Below are positions 3,213 to 16,256 of a stretch of 64,000 nucleotides of DNA, one piece after another. The notes under the pieces are model-generated. The model had not been told where the DNA came from, did not search any database, and was given only the letters and a program-made list of their open reading frames with translations. The DNA is from Mobula birostris. Lineage: Eukaryota. The DNA is taken from positions 176,586,647 through 176,650,646 of the forward strand of contig NC_092370.1 of assembly GCF_030028105.1 (NCBI RefSeq). The letters are read 5' to 3'. Position 1 is the first letter of the stretch; each line of letters opens with the position of its first letter. The position numbers and the translations under genes were made by a program.

Positions 3213-3856
3213 GGTAATGCCCTGGTTCACATCTGTATTGTCATGCTGTAGGCGTTTCATTTAGCAGCTCTGTAAGAGCTGCTGTTCTACTTTCAGCCTG
3301 TTTGGGTTATGGTTGAAGATAAGGGATGATTTGGAATGTGTGCCATCCAATTAGTGGGAGGTTTTCTTGGGGAAGGACAATAAGGTTGGGCTTGGGGCCT
3401 TTGTTCAAGAGAGGTGAAGAGATAAGACGTTGGGGAGAACTGGTCATAGCATACGATCTGGTGGGAGACCCATTTGTTCAAGATAGATTGCGAGCAACAT
3501 TCAAAAGGTGATGTGGTCTTTCTCGTTGGCTGAGGGCCCAGTGCGTGAGTGACAGAGAAGTTCAAGATGAGCTCTAATTCATGCACATTTGACTGTTCAA
3601 TTGGAATGTGCCCTTTTCTTTTTGTTATTCTTTACTAACCCTTCAGTTAAGATTCATAAATATAATTCCTTTCATCGTATGCAGTGTACTGTCGGTTATT
3701 TCGTGGCATTAATTTATAGCAGGGTAGCAAATGACACAGCATCCACACAAACTGAGGTTTGGGGTGGACTCAAGTGTGCCCCAATCTCACGAGTTTGGCG
3801 TGGCCAGAGGTCGTCTTCCCTAGACTTACGCAGCTGAGGAAACCAGAGTGGTTTCA
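3213..3856 (+). mobile_element. Probable solo LTR (~644 bp)
   Basis: Ends in ...gtttCA and starts ggtaatgccctggtt (presumed TG>GG change). The ends are weakly inverted and flanked by a 4-bp duplication tgta (3209-3212, 3857-3860). No coding content. Confidence 0.55.
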
Positions 3857-4099
3857 TGTATATATAAAACACACATAAATATTATTGTTTTGCACTATTT
3901 ACATGTCTTGCCCAATTAGCTTGCAGAAAGCAAGTGACCTTACATTTGTGTGATGATGAATGGGAAAGTATAAATTGCTGCAGATATTAGTTGGGTGTTG
4001 GGAGAGAGACTTGGTTGTTCGTGTTTGCAGAACTGTTTGGTGTCAATAACATGGAGGAGGTGTATGCAGGGTAAAAAAGTAGAGTTTGTATTAGATTAG

Positions 4100-6845: not shown

Positions 6846-7093
6846 TATGAGTGAATACATTAGTGGAATCAAAGTGAACCTTACAAAGTGAGTAAATCGA
6901 GCTGAACAATCACCTTTTCACCATTCTTCTCTGACTCAACTTTGTTCTTTTCCTTGGGTAATAGGAAGGGGTTCACTGCCCTATATCTTGTCCTTCTATA
7001 GATCCAAGTTTTGCTGCTGCTCACATCTCCAACCTAACAGTATGTTTTTCAGTGACACGCCTAGTGATAATATAGTTTTTATTGTATCACTTC

Positions 7094-7294
7094 TCTTGTG
7101 TATGTGGCCTGTTTACACAACTATGTTATTAATAAAAACGTGGGAGACAGGAGCTAAGTTTCATGGTTCCTTACTGGTAGAGTCTGAACTTTTACTCACA
7201 CACATACAGATCCCTACGCACCTAATAGCGCATGCAATGATGTGTTACTACAACATAAAGTAGACCCTTATTATAATGTAGGCCATACAGTACA
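7094..7294 (-). repeat. 3' LTR (201 bp)
   Basis: Aligns without gaps to 10750-10950 with 22 mismatches by manual count. Minus strand begins TGTAC; the terminal CA is mutated to GA. Confidence 0.95.
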
Positions 7295-7307
7295 CTCCTC
7301 CCCTTTT
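7295..7307 (-). other. Polypurine tract
   Basis: Minus strand AAAAGGGGAGGAG immediately upstream of the 3' LTR. Confidence 0.9.
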
Positions 7308-7403
7308 ATTTTAATAGTGTATCAACTGTTTTTTTTTTACTGGGTCACTATGCTAAACAAATTTGTCTACCCCAACATACAAACACCTACCATTTGTTTA
7401 CTT

Positions 7404-7461
7404 AGTAACTTAATAATATCAAATCATAACAAAGTAACTTAATAATATCAAATTATAACAA
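7404..7461. repeat. 29-bp tandem duplication in the 3' untranslated part of the LTR element
   Basis: agtaacttaataatatcaaat(c/t)ataacaa twice. Confidence 0.9.
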
Positions 7462-7493
7462 GCCTTTTTTTTTACTTTGGGTCTAAGACCCAT

Positions 7494-7555
7494 TTATAAC
7501 TCAAGTCTCTAGGGGGAGGGGTGGTTCTTCTCTGCCTCTCTGGATAACGACTGTC
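7494..7555 (-). pseudogene. Residual C-terminal tail of Gypsy pol/integrase
   Basis: Reads DSRYPERQRR..PP..RLEL* with a frameshift, matching the RYPxRxRxPPxRL ending typical of Mag-type polyproteins. Confidence 0.6.
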
Positions 7556-7658
7556 AATAAACTTGTTTGTTTTAATACAAATTTCCATATAAAAATCATG
7601 AAAAGTTGACCTCTGAGAATAGGGAGTTAAGATGTGCGCCTCCAACTTGCTAAGAGTT

Positions 7659-8595
7659 CTAGGCAGCAGATCGTCTCTGTATAATGAAGACTGCTCTGTG
7701 CAGCTGTCCTAGATATATACGCATCTTTGTGCTATCACTTGTCTTCCTTACCCATATCTCATTTGTTCCCCAACTGAGCTAATTACATAGCCAATCTTCG
7801 TATTCTCCTTAGATTCCAAATAGATAGCCTGACCTTTATGATACCATCTCTTATTGTAATATAACTTTCCATCTTCTATTCGTCCTTCATATCTTTGTGC
7901 TAGTGATTCAGCAGGAGTGCTGAGAAGATGCTCAGTAGAAGATAGAGATGCTGGTCTTTTTGGAGATTTAAGCCGATTGAGAGTTTGCAGATCTTCCGTT
8001 ATCTGTTCATCTGTTAACAAGTAATGTAACTGCACAGGTGCAGGTTTTCATCTTCTGTCTGTAATTGGAACAGGGTCATTAGGTCTCCTCCTTAGTTTCC
8101 TAGTCGTTATTGGCTCTATCTCCATAGACTCTCCTGTGAGTTCCATTGTTAGCCTCTCATTCTCAATCATCTTTTTTCTTTTCTTCTAACTCAATCTTTT
8201 TAACTTCAAATCTCTTCACTGCAGCTTTCTTCTCTTTAATATAATTCCTTTCCACTTGTTCTGTCTCCAGTTGCAGAAAAAGCTCTGCATTTCGTATTGT
8301 TTCCTTGTATTTTTGATCTAGTTTCTTCACCCTTTTCTGATACTCCTGCAAAGTGTCTTCCTATAACTGCTGTAGCTGTCCTTTGAGAGATGTCAATTTC
8401 TCCTGGTACATCTGCCCTTTTACTTCCAGGTAGTCTTCATCATCCTGCTTATTGGCAATATCTGTCTCTCTTGCTTCCTCTGTATCTTTATCCGAGTCGT
8501 GGCCACGGATACTGCATTCGTCCTCATCGTCAACGCTGTTTAGCTCCTCCTTGTCGTTGTAATAGTCGACAATGGATGAGGAGAGCTGTGGACAT
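7659..8595 (-). pseudogene. SUDS3: Intronless, start-to-stop retrocopy of Sin3 histone deacetylase corepressor complex component SDS3
   Basis: [17 protein letters not shown]...[17 protein letters not shown]...[17 protein letters not shown]...[20 protein letters not shown]...[13 protein letters not shown]...LLTDEQI...KSPKRP...[25 protein letters not shown]...[21 protein letters not shown]....IIQRRSAA*. Disabled by frameshifts (~8575, ~8170, ~7768), stops (8361-8363, ~8050) and a 24-nt deletion. About 100 nt of putative 3' UTR with ATTAAA follows (7556-7658). Confidence 0.95.
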
Positions 8596-8633
8596 CTTCC
8601 CAACCGAGCTGCCCTCCTTTGTTGACGCATCTT

Positions 8634-9199
8634 TATTCGTCCATCGTCATCATCGATGAAGACCTCGACACCATTGATGGTGCCCAGACTAGCTCATGAT
8701 TTGGATTTAAGTGAGGGAGAGTTGCGCAGCGTCAGCCTCACTCTCTCTTCCCAATTCCCATCTGGATCCAATGGCAAGACAGAGTCGAGATAGCTGGAGA
8801 TGGGACTAGGCACAGTGGATAACCAGGATGTCTTCTGTGTCTTGTTGTGCTCTACCCGTTCCATGACGCTTGCAGAGTCTGTCTTCTTGACCATTGGACC
8901 TTCCATTAGTTTCATCCACTCAATCCGCCGGAGTCTGTCTTCACATGCTGGGATAGACATCTCCCTATCTCACCGAGGGTTTGAGACCCATCGGCTTCCC
9001 TCACCTGGTTTAGCCGTTTAGCCGGCTTGTTGAAGTCGTTGCCCGGGGTGTGGCCACTGTCACATGCAAACAGCTACGAGGAGCCACAGGTGAGAGCTGA
9101 GTGCCAGGTGGGGACCAAAGGTGGACTAACCGCCTTGAAAAGGACGTGACATGTTCCCCCACCAGAGGTGCTACCACTCCCTGACACCCCATACACCCC
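8634..9199 (-). mobile_element. 566-bp non-autonomous retroposon (SINE/RTE-like) inserted secondarily into the LTR element
   Basis: Flanked by an 11-bp imperfect TSD tgacgcatctt (8623-8633) / taacacatctt (9200-9210). Minus-strand 3' end is gatgatgacgatg-like. Confidence 0.7.
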
Positions 9200-9530
9200 T
9201 AACACATCTTGTGCCTTGATGGTGTGCCAATCCAACTGGATTTTCCTGAGCCATTCCCGTCCTAGCAACAGTGGTCCTCCATTTTTCAGTACATAGCGGT
9301 TCAGCTGCTGTGTTTTGTCTTCGTAGGTCACTGTCACTTTAATTTTGGCTTTGGGACGCACTTTCTGTCCTGTGTAAGTCTTTAGCAGTAGTTTAGTTCG
9401 TTTCAGAGGTATGTGAGAAAACAGTCGTTAGTAGTCATGTACAGAGATCACTGTTAAAGCTGGGCCTGTGTCCAACTCCATTTTCAGTCTCACGCTTGCC
9501 ACTTGTGGAGTGATCCTTATCACTCTTCAA
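9200..9530 (-). pseudogene. Gypsy aspartic protease (disrupted)
   Basis: LKMELDTGPALTV...LKTYTGQK...GGPLLLGREWLRKIQLDW. Confidence 0.9.
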
Positions 9531-10367
9531 TCATCTGTCTCTTTCACGCTGTGAAGCAGCAGACAAGACAATTCACTTTCGTCTGAGTTGTTTTCATCAG
9601 AACTGATTTCTTCCATTTTGTGTACATTGTTGTGTTTTCCTTTCTGGGGTTTCTTGTTTCTCTGTATTTTGTCTGTTTTCTGTTGTTTACTAGCTTTGCA
9701 TACTCTGCCAGTGTGGCCCTGTTTGCCACAGTTTCTGCATTCTTTGTCTTTAAACCAACAGTCCTCAGGGTCATGTGACATGTTCCCATAATTGTAACAT
9801 TTATTTCCTTCATTTCTGTTTGGTGACATTTTATTCGTAGCATACTCGAGAGATTTTTTTGTACCTCTGAAGCAGCTCGTGCTTCTGTTTCCGTTGATAT
9901 TGCGATGTTCGGCACCTTCTGTAATTAAGGTCTTTTTCACTCAGGAGCTTCTTCTGTGTGGTTTCACATTCCGCACACTAACCTGTCCCTCAATGTATCC
10001 GATAGACAAGGTTCAAATTGACAACGTTCCAATAACTTGCGCAATTCACAATATTCAGAAATGCTTTCATTTTTGCTCTAATTCTGTTTGTGAAATTTAA
10101 ATCTTTCAGCAATGACCAGTGGTTTGGGGTTTAATGCTGTTGGAGAGTGTCTACTATTTGCTTGAATGTTTTGTCAGCTGGCTTTTCAGGGGTTAACAAG
10201 CTCTGTAGCAGCCCATATGTTTTTGCTGTCATAATACTGAGTAAGACACTGGCTTTCTTTTCATCATTAACACCATTAGCCTCATTATATAACTCCACTC
10301 TCTCAATGTAAGTTGCCCAGTCTTCAATGCCACTATCAAATGCTGTAATGGTTCCAATCATTGCCAC
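9530..10367 (-). pseudogene. Gypsy gag (disrupted) with two zinc knuckles
   Basis: IGTITAFDSGIEDWATYIERVELY..ANGV..EKKASVLLS...YGLLQSLLTPEKP...LVIAERFKFH...LRDRLVCG...CYNYGNMSHDPEDC....ECRNCGKQGHTGRVC. Confidence 0.92.
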
Positions 10368-10519
10368 CTTTGTTATGTTAATTTAGCCCCTTTTCCCCCT
10401 TTTTTTCTTTTTGACTCATGTGTCCTTTTTGCTAGCCCCACGAGCGCACTCTGTCTAGATGTGTGTGTCGCTCCTTTTTATCTCCCTTCTGGGGCAGGCA
10501 GACCCTCAGCCCCTGGGGG

Positions 10520-10693
10520 TCAGCGCTGGCTGTGGTCTCGGCTGGACATGCTGCGGCTCCGACTGTGTTTCTTGGCCTCCCGATGTTCCTGACTCCGGCT
10601 GTGCTCCTGCTTCCTTTCGGACTCGTGGCCTTGCTCTGTCTCCTTCTCCCACTCCTTGGCTTGTTCCTTGCGCTCTTCCTCCAAGTGTCGCTT
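10520..10693 (-). pseudogene. Captured 3' coding end of an RS/RE-rich splicing-factor mRNA, ACIN1 (Acinus)-like
   Basis: A frame absent from the ORF track reads KRHLEEERKEQAKEWEKETEQGHESERKQEHSRSQEHREAKKHSRSRSMSSRDHSQR*. Reverting CpG-decay codons gives ...KEREKETER...REHSR...KKHSRSRS..SRDRSRR*, resembling the ACIN1 C-terminus as I recall it. Confidence 0.6.
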
Positions 10694-10735
10694 TCAACTA
10701 AAACCCGGCGTTCCGATAAGATGTAGGTTCATTAA

Positions 10736-10746
10736 CCTCGTCACCA
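10736..10746 (-). other. Primer-binding site
   Basis: TGGTGACGAGG, 3 nt downstream of the 5' LTR end (TGG is complementary to tRNA CCA). Confidence 0.75.
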
Positions 10747-10749
10747 ATT

Positions 10750-10950
10750 TGTTGTGTATGTGGCCTGTTTACACAACTATGTTATTAATAAAAACACAAG
10801 AGACGGCAGCTAAGTTTCATGGTTCTTTACTGGTAGAGTCCAAACTTTTACTCACACACATACAGATCCCTACACGCCCAATACTACATGCAACAGCATG
10901 TTACTACAACATAAAGTAGTCCCTTATTATAATGTAGGCCATACAGTACA
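10750..10950 (-). repeat. 5' LTR (201 bp)
   Basis: TGTAC...CAACA termini on the minus strand; pairs with 7094-7294. Confidence 0.95.
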
Positions 10951-11241
10951 ACTTCCGTGCGACACTCCGTGTTTTTGAGAGATGTATTTAACCATGATTA
11001 AAATAGCTATCTCGTGTCTCAGATGATAGGTCTGGTGAAATGGACTGACACAGGGTGACTTCAGAAGTAATTTGTGTGCACAAGTGTGATCTTATTATTT
11101 GTGAAGTCTTATTTGACTCTGATGGCAAATTTTGATAATTATGTTGTTCAAGTATGTACTGTAGTTTTAAATACTTTACTGTCCATCATTTTGATGTCTT
11201 TTACTTCAGGGTTTCCATACTCATAGGGCCTATATCCAAAT

Positions 11242-14180
11242 AATCAGAATCAGGTTTATTATCACTGGCATGTGTCATGAAATTTGTTAACTTAGCAGCA
11301 GCAGTTCAATGCAATACATAATATAGAAGGAAAAAAATAAGTAAGTCAATTACAGTATACGTATATTGAATAGATTGAAAATCATGCAAAAACAGAAATA
11401 ATGCACTGTATATTTAAAAAAGTGAGGTAGTGTTCAAGGGTTCAACGTCCATTTAGGAATCAGATGGCAGAGGACAAGAAGCTGTTTCTGAATCACTGAG
11501 TGTGTGCCTTCAGGCTTCTGTACCTCCTACTTGATGGTAACAGTGAGAAAAGGACATGCCCTGGGTGCTGGAGGTCCTTAGTAATGAACACTGCATTTCT
11601 GAGACACCGCTCCTTGAAGATGTGCTGGATACTTTGTAGGCTAGTACCCAAGATGGAACTGACTAAATTTGCAACCCTCTCCAGCTTCTTTTGGTCCTGT
11701 GCAGTCATTCCCCCAAACCAGACAGTGATGCAGCCTGTCAGAATGCTCTCCACGGTACATGTATAGAAGTTTTTGAGTGTATTTGTTGACGTACCAAATC
11801 TCTTCAAACTGTTAATGAAATATAGTGTTTGTCTTTCCTTCTTTATAACTGTATTGATATGTTGGGACCAGGTGAGGTCCTCAGAGATCTTGACACTCAA
11901 AAACTTGAAACTACCTACTCTCTCCACTTCTGATCCCTCTATAAGGATTGGTATGTGTTTGTCTTACCCTTCCTGAAGTGCACAATCAGCTCTTTCGTCT
12001 TACTGACATTGGAATGCCAGGTTGTTGCTACAGCACCACTCCACTAGTCGGCATATCTCACTCCTGTATGCCCTCTCCTCTCCATCTGAGATTCTACCAA
12101 CAATGGTTGTATCATCAACAAACTTATACATGGTATTTGAGCTACGCCTAGCCACACAGTCATGGGTATAGACAGAGTGGAGCAGTGGGCTAAGCATACA
12201 TCCCAGAGGTGCACCAGTGTTGATAGTCAGTGAGGAGGAGATATTATCACCAATCCCCACAAATTGTGGTCTTCCAGTTAGGAAGTCGAAGATCCAATTG
12301 CAGAGGGAGGTACAAAGGCCCAGGTTCTGTAACTTCTCAATCAGAATTGTGGGAATGATGGTATTAAATGCTGAGCTATAGTCGATGAACAGCATTCTGA
12401 CATAGGTGTTTGTGTTGTCCTAGTGGTTAAAAGCTGTGTGAAGAGCCATTGAGATTCCATCTACTGTTGACCTGTTGTGGCGATAGGCAAATTGCAATGG
12501 GTCCAGGTCCTTGCTGAGGCAGGAGTTCAGTCTAGTCATGACCAACCACTCAAAGCATTTCATCATTGTTGATGTGAGTGCTACCAGGTAATAGTTATTA
12601 AGGCAGCTCACATTACTCTTCTTAGGCACTGGTATAATTGTTGCCTTTTTGAAACAAGTAGGAACTTCTGCCTGAAGCAGTGAGAGGTTGAAAATGTCCT
12701 TGAATACTCTCGCCAGTTGGTTGGCACAGGTTTTCAGAACCTTACCAGGTACTCCATCGGGACCTTCTGCCTTGCGAGGGTTCAGTCTCTTTAAAGACAG
12801 CCTAACATCGGCCTCTGAGACAGAGATCACAGGGTCATCAGGTGCAGCAGGGATCTTCACAGCTGTAGTTATATTCTCCCTTTCAAAGTGAGCATAGAAG
12901 GTGTTGAGTTCATGTGGTAGTGAAGCATCGCTGCCATTCATGCTATTGGGTTTTGTTTTGTAGGAAGTAATGTATTGCAAACCCTGCCAGAGTTGTCATA
13001 CATTCGAAGTCGCCTCTTTGCCCTTGAAACATCTCTCCGCAAATCATACCTGGTTTACCGGGGTGGGTCGCAGACTTGAATGCCACAGATCTAGCCTTCA
13101 GCAGATGACGTACCTCCTGGTTCGTCCACGGCTTTTGGTTTGGGAATGTACAGTAAATCTTTGTAGGCACACACACATCCACACAGGTTTTAATGAAGTC
13201 AGCAACAACTGCAGCATACTCATCCAGGTTCGAAGATGAATTCCTGAATACAGTCCAGTCCACCAGTTCAAAGCAGTACTGTAGGCACTCCTGCGCTTCC
13301 CTTGTCCAAAGCTTCTTGGTCCTCACTACTGGTGCTGCAGTCTTCAGTCTCTGCCTGTACTCAGGGAGTAGAAGTACAGCCAGGTGATCACACTTCCAGA
13401 AGTGAGGGCATGGAACAGCATGGTAGGCATTCTTGATGGTAGTGTAGCAATGGTCCAGTGTGTTGTTTACTCTAGTATTGCAAGTGATCTGTTGGTGGTA
13501 ATTGCTTAGTTTTTTCAGACTGGTCTGGTTAAAATCCTTGAAAATGATGGTGAAGGCATTAGGGTGCGCTGTTTCATGCATGTTGATCCCATTGCTCAGA
13601 TCATCTAAAGCCTGATTGACATTGGCCTGAGGTGGAATGTAAACTGCTACCAAAATGATCCCAGAAATCTCCCGCGGTAAGTAAAAAGGACAACACTTAA
13701 CTGCTAGATATTCCAGGTCTGATGAGCAGAGTTGGGACAGCACTAGTATATTTGTGCACCTAGAAGAATTGATCATGAGGCTTACTCCTCCACCTCTGCT
13801 TTTGAGAGACCCTATAGATCTATCCTGACAGTGTATAGTAAACCTGTCAATCTGAATCACTGCATCTGGTACAGAAGGGGTTAACTAGGATTCTGTGAAA
13901 CAAAGGACACATGCTGTCCTACTGTCCCTCTGATTCAGCACCCTAGCTCTGAGACCATCGATTTTATTCACCAGAGACTGCATGTTTACCAGCAAGCTAG
14001 TCAGTATTGGGAGTTTAAAACCCCGTTTCCTTAAACACGCTTGTATCGCTGACCTGCTGCCATGTTTCCTGCATCGAATCCTGTGACAACTCTGTCCCCA
14101 GTCAGCATTGTTTGTGTCAGTTTCAAGCAGCAATAGTTTTAAGGCATCTTTGTTGACTGTACTGACTTTGGAAGCAGTTG
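11242..14180 (-). mobile_element. Near full-length Rex1/Babar LINE (APE endonuclease + RT, frameshifted)
   Basis: VLCFTES, RGGGV, VYIPP, DFN, TLDHCY, DHLAV (endonuclease); [32 protein letters not shown] (RT); (ctgatt)n tail at 11242-11253. Confidence 0.93.
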
Positions 14181-15030
14181 TGCTTTTTAGCTGTATTTCC
14201 TTTATCCCTCTGTCTATCTAAGAGACTCTTAAGTGTCCCCAATGTATTTGCCTCTACCACCACTCCCAGCAGCATGTTCTATGCACCCTTCTATGTAAAA
14301 AAATACTACCTCTGACATCACCCCTATACTTTCCTCCAATCATCTTATAAATATGACCACTGGTCTTAGTCATTTCTGCCTTGGGAAAATGTCTCTGGCT
14401 GTCCACACTATCTATGCCTCTCATACATCTCTATCAAGTCACCTTTTATCCTCCTTCACTCCAGAGAGAAACACCCTAGCTTGCTCAACCTATCCTCATA
14501 AGACATGCTCTCATATGGTCACATGAGGTGACCAGAACTGGACACAATACTCAAAGTGTGGTCTAACCAGAATTTTATTGAACTAAAACATTTTGCAGCT
14601 CTTGAACTCAATCCCTTGACTAATGAAGGCCAACACACCTTATGTCTTCTTAACTACCCTATTAACTTGTGCTGCAACTTTGAGGGACCGATGGCTGCGG
14701 ACTCAAAATTTCTCTGCTCAGAATCCTGCCATCAACTCTGTACTCTGCCTTCAAGTGTGGCTTTCTAAAGTGAATCACCTCACCCTTTCCATCTGACACT
14801 CCTCAGCCCTGCTCTGCATCCTATAAATGTCCCATTGTAACCTATACCAACCTTCTACACTATCCACAACCTTCATGTTACCTGCAAACTTACTAGCCCA
14901 CCCTTCCACTTCCACATCTAAATCATTTATAAAAATCACTGGTCACCGATCTCCGGGCAGAATACGCTCCACCCTCTGCTTTCTGTGGACAAGCCAGTTC
15001 TGAATCCAAACAGCCAGGTTCCCATAGACC
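14180..15030 (-). mobile_element. CR1 LINE 3' portion, degraded; continues at 16257-16535
   Basis: Resembles the CR1 copies at 37.5 kb and 58-59 kb. The 16277-16519 ORF has SQHGFLRGRLCL...IDVVYRDFS. Confidence 0.8.
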
Positions 15031-15046
15031 TTCTATTCATTATTCC

Positions 15047-16256
15047 ATGAATAATATGAGCTGCCTTAATGACTATCACCCGGTAGCACTCACATCTACA
15101 GTGATGAAATGCTTTGAGTGGTTGGTCATGACTAGACTGAACTCCTGCCTCAGCAAGGACCTGGACCCATTGCAATTTGCCTATCGCCACAATAGGGCAA
15201 TGGCAGATGCAATCTCAATTGCCCTTCACACAGCTTTAGACCACCTGGACAACACAAACACCTATGTCAGGATGCTGTTCATCGACTACAGATCAGCATT
15301 TAATATCATCATTCCCACAATCCTGATTGAGAAGTTACAGAACCTGGGCCTCTGTACCTCCCCCCGCAATTCAATCCTTGACTTCCTAACCGGAGGACCA
15401 CAATCTGAGTGGATTCGTGATAACATCTCCTCCTCACTGATGATCAACATTGGTCCACTTCAGGGATGTGTGCTTAGCCCTCTGCTCTGCTCTCTATATA
15501 CCCATAACTGTGTGGCTAGGCATAGCTCAAATACCATCTATAAATTTGCTGATGATACAACCATTGTTGGTAGAATCTCAGGTGGTGACGAGAGGGCAGA
15601 CAAGAAAGAGATATCCCAACTAGTGGAGTGGTGTCGCAGCAACAACCTGGCACACAATGTTAGTAAGAGGAAAGAGCTGATTGTGGACTGGAAGAGATTT
15701 GGTATGTCAACAAATACACTAAAAAACTTCTATAGATATACCGTGGAGAGCATTCTGACAGGCTGCATCACTGTCTGGTATGGGGTGGGGGCTACTGCAC
15801 AGGACCGAAAGAAGTTGCAGAGGGTTTTAAGTTTAGTTGGCTCCATCTTGGGTACTAGCCTACAAAGGAGTGGTGTCTTAGAAAGGCAGCGTTTATTATT
15901 AAGGACCTCCAACACCCAGGGCATGCCTTTTTCTTACTGTTACCAACAGGTAGGAGGTACAGAAGCCTGAAGGCACACACTCAGTGATTTAAGAACAGCT
16001 CCTTCCACTTTGCTATCTGATTCCTAAATGGACATTGAGCCCTTGGACACTACCTCACTTTTTAAATATATATTATTTCTGTTCTTGCATGATTTTTAAT
16101 CTATTCAATATACGTATACTGTTATTGATTTACTTATTATTATTATTATTATTTTATTTTTTTTTCTTCTATATTATGTATTGGATTGAACTGCTGCTGC
16201 TAAGTTAATAAATTTCATGACACAAGCTGGTGATAATAAACCTGATTCTGATTCTG
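15047..16256 (+). mobile_element. Rex1/Babar LINE, 5'-truncated with internal deletion, inserted in CR1
   Basis: ORF 15047-15970 RT with KFADDTT, very similar to 11242-12620 in inverted orientation; (ctgatt)n tail. Confidence 0.92.

Follow-up and report, generated by a model that had tools for sequence, protein, structure and literature searches.

A host ACIN1 exon fragment in the leader of an LTR retrotransposon family of Mobula birostris, and its combinations with a captured SUDS3 transcript

How did the end of a host coding sequence come to lie in the non-coding leader of an LTR retrotransposon, and how does it relate to a second host transcript carried by the same element? We addressed these questions in a 64,000-nt stretch of the 4.0-Gb Mobula birostris genome (G000:C1:176586647-176650646; here called the window). 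A preliminary description, made from the letters alone, had read a GC-rich block in front of gag as the captured end of an ACIN1 mRNA and had proposed that the element took up two transcripts serially, over more than one replication round.

The element is a Ty3/Gypsy-type LTR retrotransposon, identified by its LTRs, tRNA primer-binding site (PBS), polypurine tract (PPT), short target-site duplication (TSD), and pol order (Table 1). In a pol-bearing relative (L058) the Pfam matches follow the Ty3/Gypsy order RVT_1, RT_RNaseH, Integrase_H2C2, rve_3. Within that group we guess it to be Mag-like. No env was seen in the element. The PBS of the window copy carries one CpG-type change; its complement forms the end of 86 genomic tRNA-like sites, and both loci fetched were called tRNA-Ser(gct). 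These tRNA-Ser(GCT)-type 3′ ends are mostly (73 of 86) scattered along a single contig, C17. The gag-protease (PR) region gives weak Pfam matches to DUF7083 and zf-CCHC and is 86%–90% identical to pol-bearing relatives; what we take to be the protease was recognized by its DTG motif alone and has no Pfam match.

Two inserts were considered as third captures and rejected. The 568-bp insert of the window copy (9201-8634) is a high-copy repeat, with 5793 first-look candidates genome-wide and a flanking duplication of ∼8–9 bp. An insert of ∼1 kb at one gag site (∼window 10240) in several copies (L079, L087, L094, and L044) is bounded by terminal inverted repeats and is found in either orientation; the site is an insertion hot spot for this element, which is presumably Harbinger-like. 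Elsewhere in the window, two LINE-like reverse transcriptase (RT) elements lie in opposite orientation at 11240-16250 (88%–95% complementary), and the rest holds many further LINE fragments.

Table 1. Features of the element in the window, ordered along its sense strand
Feature	Position	Strand	Remarks
5-bp TSD, upstream copy	10951..10955	-	Same 5-mer on both flanks
5′ LTR, 201 bp, TG...CA	10750..10950	-	89% identity to 7094-7294 over 199 nt
PBS, complementary to 3′ end of tRNA-Ser(GCT)	10736..10746	-	Copies aligned
Captured ACIN1 last-exon fragment, 193 nt, sense orientation	10490..10682	-	Host L034:3336-3540 less a 12-nt repeat unit
ACIN1 stop codon	10520..10522	-	Aligned to host stop L034:3508-3510
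ACIN1 3′ UTR in block, 30 nt	10519-10490	-	Follows the stop
Element's own leader, downstream of capture	10368..10489	-	Common to ACIN1-less relatives
Decayed gag (CCHC knuckles) and protease	9202..10367	-	From translation; stops and frameshifts break the frame
Nested high-copy interspersed repeat, 568 bp	8634..9201	-	Missing from other copies examined
End of the element's protease region, up to SUDS3 junction	8608..8633	-	Common to pol-bearing L058
Captured spliced SUDS3 mRNA	7551..8607	-	Replaces RT-RNaseH-integrase
Element's pol tail and 3′ untranslated region	7308..7550	-	Common to pol-bearing L002, L012, L059
PPT	7295..7307	-	In sequence, immediately before 3′ LTR
3′ LTR	7094..7294	-	10.6% divergence from 5′ LTR
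5-bp TSD, downstream copy	7089..7093	-	Matches upstream copy

The block region has a GC content of 63%, compared with 41% in gag-PR. As the preliminary description noted, it holds a 57-codon stop-free frame on the minus strand, which is the sense strand of the element, between the PBS (10746-10736) and gag (start ∼10367). The frame spans 10693-10523, ends in KKHSRSRSMSSRDHSQR before a stop at 10522-10520, and has no start codon; its first four codons are the element's own leader. BLASTN against 60 kb of the host ACIN1 locus aligned 10682-10490 (minus strand) to the last exon with 85% identity over 192 nt (E 4e-55), the one match that the whole 4.2-kb element gave there. The corresponding host span (L034:3336-3540, equal to G000:C4338:107336-107540) comprises 175 nt of the ACIN1 coding end, including the stop, and 30 nt of 3′ UTR; the block lacks 12 nt of this span. 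The expected stretch of 3′ UTR was thus present, if short. Of the proposed extent of 10430-10700, the host-derived core was upheld and the limits were not: 10489-10430 is element leader.

Between the window copy and the host exon there are 14 amino acid differences in 54 aligned codons, eight of them from Arg to Gln, Trp, or His at host codons that start with CG, which bears out the earlier remark that many such codons are one CpG deamination from Arg. In a set of 41 copies (30 block-selected loci and 11 of 20 SUDS3-selected loci with a near-full block), CpG transitions made up 253 of 429 private changes, with CpG positions at 40 of 205. We attribute the Arg changes to decay of methylated CpGs after insertion. 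The sequence is purine-rich and RE/RS-repetitive, and neither the block nor the host last exon matched Pfam. Its local score against the exon was 235; when the codons of the host exon were shuffled 500 times, no score exceeded 50. This control and the BLASTN match led us to reject low-complexity coincidence. A 4-residue repeat at L034:3367-3378 is present twice in host and stingray ACIN1 and once in most element copies and the relative P0122, reflecting either slippage in the element or a donor that predated the duplication.

The donor of the block is the host ACIN1 ortholog. The ACIN1/Pinin RSB motif (PF16294) has a single genomic match among 11 candidates scored, and the exon upstream of that gene's last exon is 99% identical to stingray (Hypanus) acin1b; the named matches listed are ACIN1, and Pinin was set aside on that ground. 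The last exon starts after an AG at L034:3250, has its stop at 3508-3510, and is followed by a polyadenylation-like signal near 3945. Its translation is the C terminus of named Mobula ACIN1-like proteins, confirming the gene that the preliminary description had named, and is conserved in stingray and coelacanth ACIN1. No LTR or gag sequence matched in the 60 kb around the gene, and the host site is therefore a real exon.

The ACIN1-bearing leader is the commonest one in the family and not peculiar to the window copy. All 30 block-matching loci fetched (30 of the 40 listed, among 586 candidates) match the ACIN1 exon. The ends of the piece are fixed: all 41 copies have the 5′ end at host 3336-3340, and 39 of them share a 3′ end at 3540. 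The whole host exon as query gave 459 candidates; the best 39 non-self matches all lie inside the captured span, and none of these is a longer variant crossing the upstream splice junction. An exact 18-mer across the ACIN1 junction occurs at least 199 times in the genome (control 4). The block is likely one old capture, amplified with the family into hundreds of copies.

Relatives lacking the block also exist. The first intact leader without ACIN1 was found in a SUDS3-selected copy (L046), and a query made from it returned 30 loci, 0/30 with an ACIN1 match. These empty leaders fall into two types, the longer of which reads straight through the site and retains the downstream leader of ACIN1 copies. 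Comparison with them indicated that the capture replaced ∼9 nt of a GA-rich run in the parent leader. Both types retain the ∼9 nt and are therefore not deletion products of ACIN1 copies; simple deletion was rejected, as they keep parent bases missing from ACIN1 copies. The notion of a leader without cellular homolog was likewise rejected, by the exon match and by these relatives. An empty-leader 18-mer occurs at least 39 times (control 9), seven of the matches forming one evenly spaced series at G000:C21:793184-972351 that suggests a tandem segmental array; three similarly spaced matches lie at C6:60.7-61.0 Mb.

At the 5′ junction, 6 nt in a purine-rich context are common to parent and exon (7 nt with today's host base, which is absent from the copies), and 1 nt is common to them at the 3′ junction; these matches, like that at a SUDS3 junction below, are candidate microhomologies. 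Neither ACIN1 junction showed a poly(A) tail or a TSD of its own. The piece falls within one exon and spans no intron, and for this reason we infer, rather than read directly, that it came from mRNA.

For the second cargo the mRNA origin is direct, with 11 host SUDS3 exons (G000:C36:8222448-8191420) joined without introns at 82%–100% identity. The cargo has its ATG at 8595, its stop at 7661-7659, and part of the 3′ UTR, and lacks 27 nt of one exon; the 80 kb of host locus searched contained no exon for 8607-8491 (SUDS3 exon 1). The element therefore holds cargoes from two unrelated host genes, as first described, SUDS3 as a spliced mRNA and ACIN1 as a probable mRNA capture. First-look searches gave ∼400–470 SUDS3 candidates in the genome, which appear to descend from one capture amplified by the LTR element. 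In 27 copies (L038-L067) we found two 3′ junctions, at host C36:8191419-21 in 12 and at ∼8191187-8191203 in another 12 (three were interrupted), one of them with 5 nt of microhomology; the two junctions point to a second template switch after capture.

In all 13 copies in which both motifs were found, of 23 examined (L039-L057; window 8633-8593), the SUDS3 ATG lies in the reading frame of the protease, so that the non-autonomous form encodes a Gag-PR-SDS3 fusion layout. "SDS3-like" database models from two Mobula species (P0001, P0031, P0101, and P0118) contain the element's 9-aa deletion, and the start of P0101 is the ACIN1 block in another frame (78% over 41 aa); the double-cargo family is thus present in both species and annotated as genes. 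The two cargoes lie ∼1.3 kb apart in typical copies.

Copies with only one of the captures occur in both kinds, making four combinations in all. ACIN1 accompanies pol in L058-L060 and in nine of 30 loci from a PR-RT query (the query's own locus counted), and an empty leader accompanies pol in most of L069-L097. Among 20 SUDS3-selected copies, 14 carry ACIN1, one has an intact empty leader, and five have no leader in view; L046 and L080 carry SUDS3 without ACIN1. If each insertion arose once, recombination is needed to produce all four combinations. Both L046 and L080 look like recombinants: at the 5′ side they have the alleles of empty-leader copies, with none of the four strongest ACIN1-linked alleles (10735, 10733, 10698, and 10439), and at the 3′ side those linked to SUDS3, at three and four of five sites from 9941 to 9517, a pattern as expected for crossovers in gag. 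The ACIN1-bearing pol elements have alleles of their own at 9916 and 9910 (11 of 11, compared with 12 of 34–35) and shared deletions inside the block (L110/L120 and L116/L129). Over 9700-9205, which adjoins the SUDS3 junction, the distance of SUDS3 copies is 7.3% and 7.1% to ACIN1-less pol copies and 8.2% to ACIN1-bearing pol copies; the latter have longer branches of their own, so that the gap is small.

We compared each cargo with today's host gene, counting differences common to at least two thirds of copies (for SUDS3, nine of 11 exons in 23–24 copies). ACIN1 differs at eight of 55 third positions (seven synonymous), 0 of 108 first and second positions, and five of 30 UTR positions; SUDS3 differs at five of 241 third, three of 242 first, 0 of 243 second, and three of 113 UTR positions. 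The ACIN1 piece is thus about five times further from its host gene. Leaving out a junction-adjacent site and one nonsynonymous site in ACIN1, the third-position contrast is six of 54 versus five of 241 (P = 0.006; P = 1e-4 with UTRs added). Because the ACIN1 changes in coding sequence are confined to third positions, they would have arisen in a working ACIN1 gene and not in the element. The donor was further from today's gene for one of three reasons: the capture is older, the donor was foreign, or the locus evolves faster. Synonymous rates (Ks) are higher on small GC-rich elasmobranch chromosomes (PMC10620051), and ACIN1 is GC-rich (GC3 of 0.89 compared with 0.36 for SUDS3), so the extra divergence may reflect rate, not age. 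ACIN1 is probably the older of the two captures, and separate captures are favored.

Insertion ages do not order the captures, as LTR–LTR divergence is alike in all classes, with means of 7%–9% (n = 4, 4, 4, and 12) and 12% in one ACIN1-less SUDS3 copy. These values average 25 of 41 loci; ten had no second LTR in view and six had <140 aligned nt. A gag-PR tree (FastTree, 60 copies) was star-like, gave little support for cargo classes, and left the captures without an order.

Most likely, the cargo is carried as a passenger. Among variants common to three or more copies, no selection was seen on the SUDS3 frame (13 nonsynonymous to two synonymous) or on the ACIN1 frame (3:1, only four variants in all); in the gag-PR control, synonymous changes were enriched (P = 5e-5 and 0.002). 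The captured host span contains no ATG, which is likely why the gag leader tolerated it. Alternatively, the transposon may have domesticated a host exon, the purine-rich, ATG-free piece being retained because it aids element RNA, through SR-protein binding for export or packaging or by blunting silencing; the capture might then have occurred well before the family burst, or in another ray species followed by horizontal transfer. Such a retained benefit would account for about five of six detected leaders carrying ACIN1. We think this improbable. The abundance of ACIN1 tracks the SUDS3 subfamily: pol-bearing loci with the leader in view carry ACIN1 in nine cases and lack it in ∼11, and because this is under half, the abundance may be hitchhiking.

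Starting from the observed identity, sense orientation, and fixed ends of the piece, the ∼9 nt that it replaced, the 6-nt match at its 5′ end, its presence in gag-PR-RT-RH-IN elements, and the four combinations, we consider it likely that part of the ACIN1 last exon was fixed in the leader of a Ty3/Gypsy-type element, probably by one template-switch capture, and was then amplified as a neutral passenger, with SUDS3 acquired separately and the cargoes assorted by recombination. The RT would have switched onto a co-packaged ACIN1 mRNA and back, entering at the purine-rich match between the parent leader and the exon. With the piece outside any ORF and free of ATG, the element would have stayed mobile. 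SUDS3 mRNA may have been taken in a separate event that replaced pol and gave rise to a non-autonomous subfamily, and template switching between co-packaged element RNAs would have assorted the two cargoes. The double-cargo form presumably underwent the greatest amplification, and the ACIN1 block would have been copied into hundreds of elements, likely as a neutral passenger.

A strictly serial history in one lineage, in which an ACIN1-bearing pol element later took SUDS3 and the ACIN1-less SUDS3 copies are late recombinants, departs from this explanation in one respect, that it specifies the background on which SUDS3 was captured, and we put its chances slightly below even. The 14 of 20 SUDS3-selected copies with ACIN1, against a single intact empty leader and five with no leader in view, speak for it, as do the apparently greater age of ACIN1 and the recombinant look of L046 and L080. 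However, near the SUDS3 junction the copies are slightly closer to ACIN1-less pol (7.3%/7.1%) than to ACIN1-bearing pol (8.2%), and it fits equally that an empty-leader element took up SUDS3 and later recombined. Of the serial captures first proposed, more than one replication round is supported; the one-lineage order is not established, and all four combinations need recombination. It seems unlikely that both transcripts entered in one multi-switch round of reverse transcription, with the single-cargo forms arising by later recombination with the parent. Multi-gene captures in one locus are documented (PMC5131818), LTR ages are similar across classes, and recombination is evident in the family, but divergence from the host gene is about five times greater for ACIN1 than for SUDS3, and the alleles and block deletions of the ACIN1-bearing pol elements imply an independent history.

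That ACIN1 entered an already integrated element at the DNA level, through break repair or gene conversion, would fit a piece that spans no intron, has no poly(A), and has a 3′ junction almost without microhomology. Yet the piece lies in sense orientation with both ends inside exon sequence, 6 nt of microhomology mark its 5′ junction, and a spliced SUDS3 mRNA was demonstrably captured in this family, which together make such an entry quite unlikely. We give hardly any weight to a low-complexity coincidence, which a purine-rich, RE/RS-repetitive sequence might invite, or to a host exon derived from the element: the nucleotide match continues through the stop into the UTR, shuffles scored at most 50 against 235, the exon protein is conserved in stingray and coelacanth ACIN1, and parent elements lack the block.

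It is rare for a gene-capturing LTR element to survive, in hundreds of copies, as the parent without cargo, as each of the single-cargo forms, and with both cargoes, and the steps of the proposed template-switch capture and of reassortment can therefore be followed within a single genome. The ACIN1-bearing pol elements show that an element can keep its coding genes after a capture in its non-coding leader. A search of the literature, with most subscription papers and Repbase outside its scope, returned no earlier description of this ACIN1/SUDS3 LTR family. A 2026 preprint (10.64898/2026.06.26.734816) counts SUDS3 as one of the five genes most often retrocopied in cartilaginous fishes and interprets such lists as repeated independent capture with selective filtering; the passages found make no mention of ACIN1, Mobula, or LTR capture. 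Retrocopy counts call for caution, as the ∼400–470 SUDS3 candidates here appear to be one amplified capture.

In its structure the family resembles Ty3/Gypsy elements in its TG...CA LTRs, PBS, PPT, 5-bp TSD, CCHC gag, and RT-RNaseH-integrase order; unlike in full elements, RT, RNase H, and integrase are missing from the window copy. Acutely transforming retroviruses carry transduced host genes. In these, and when HERV-K captured FAM8A1 (PMC5131818), template switching put host mRNA in place of internal coding sequence, as would be the case for SUDS3 here, and helper-dependent spread can be surmised for the SUDS3 cargo too; unlike in them, no env was seen in the element and no selection was detected on the cargo frames.

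For flies, mosquito, zebrafish, chicken, and mammals, Tan et al. (2016, PMC5131818) report LTR-mediated retroposition by microsimilarity-dependent template switching, along with multi-gene chimeras, secondary retroposition, and a median junction microhomology of 6 bp. As in those cases, the family in the ray carries pieces of host genes, probably taken from transcripts, in sense orientation between both LTRs, with apparent short junction microhomology; it forms multi-gene chimeras, and its copies share switch points through secondary retroposition. The SUDS3 cargo replaces element ORF sequence, as did the 15 Drosophila retrocopies described there, whereas ACIN1 replaces only ∼9 nt of the non-coding leader and is present together with pol, and the family here, unlike those cases, reaches hundreds of copies. 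According to PMC5131818, maize Bs1 (pieces of three host genes, 1–5 copies) is likewise a non-autonomous LTR element with pieces of several unlinked genes and switch points common to all copies. Unlike Bs1, in which the pieces merged in one gene, ACIN1 and SUDS3 lie apart and assort separately, and the ray genome retains the parent and single-cargo forms. Set against what these sources describe, template-switch gene capture is a known process, and what is unusual in the ray is the position in the leader and the copy number.
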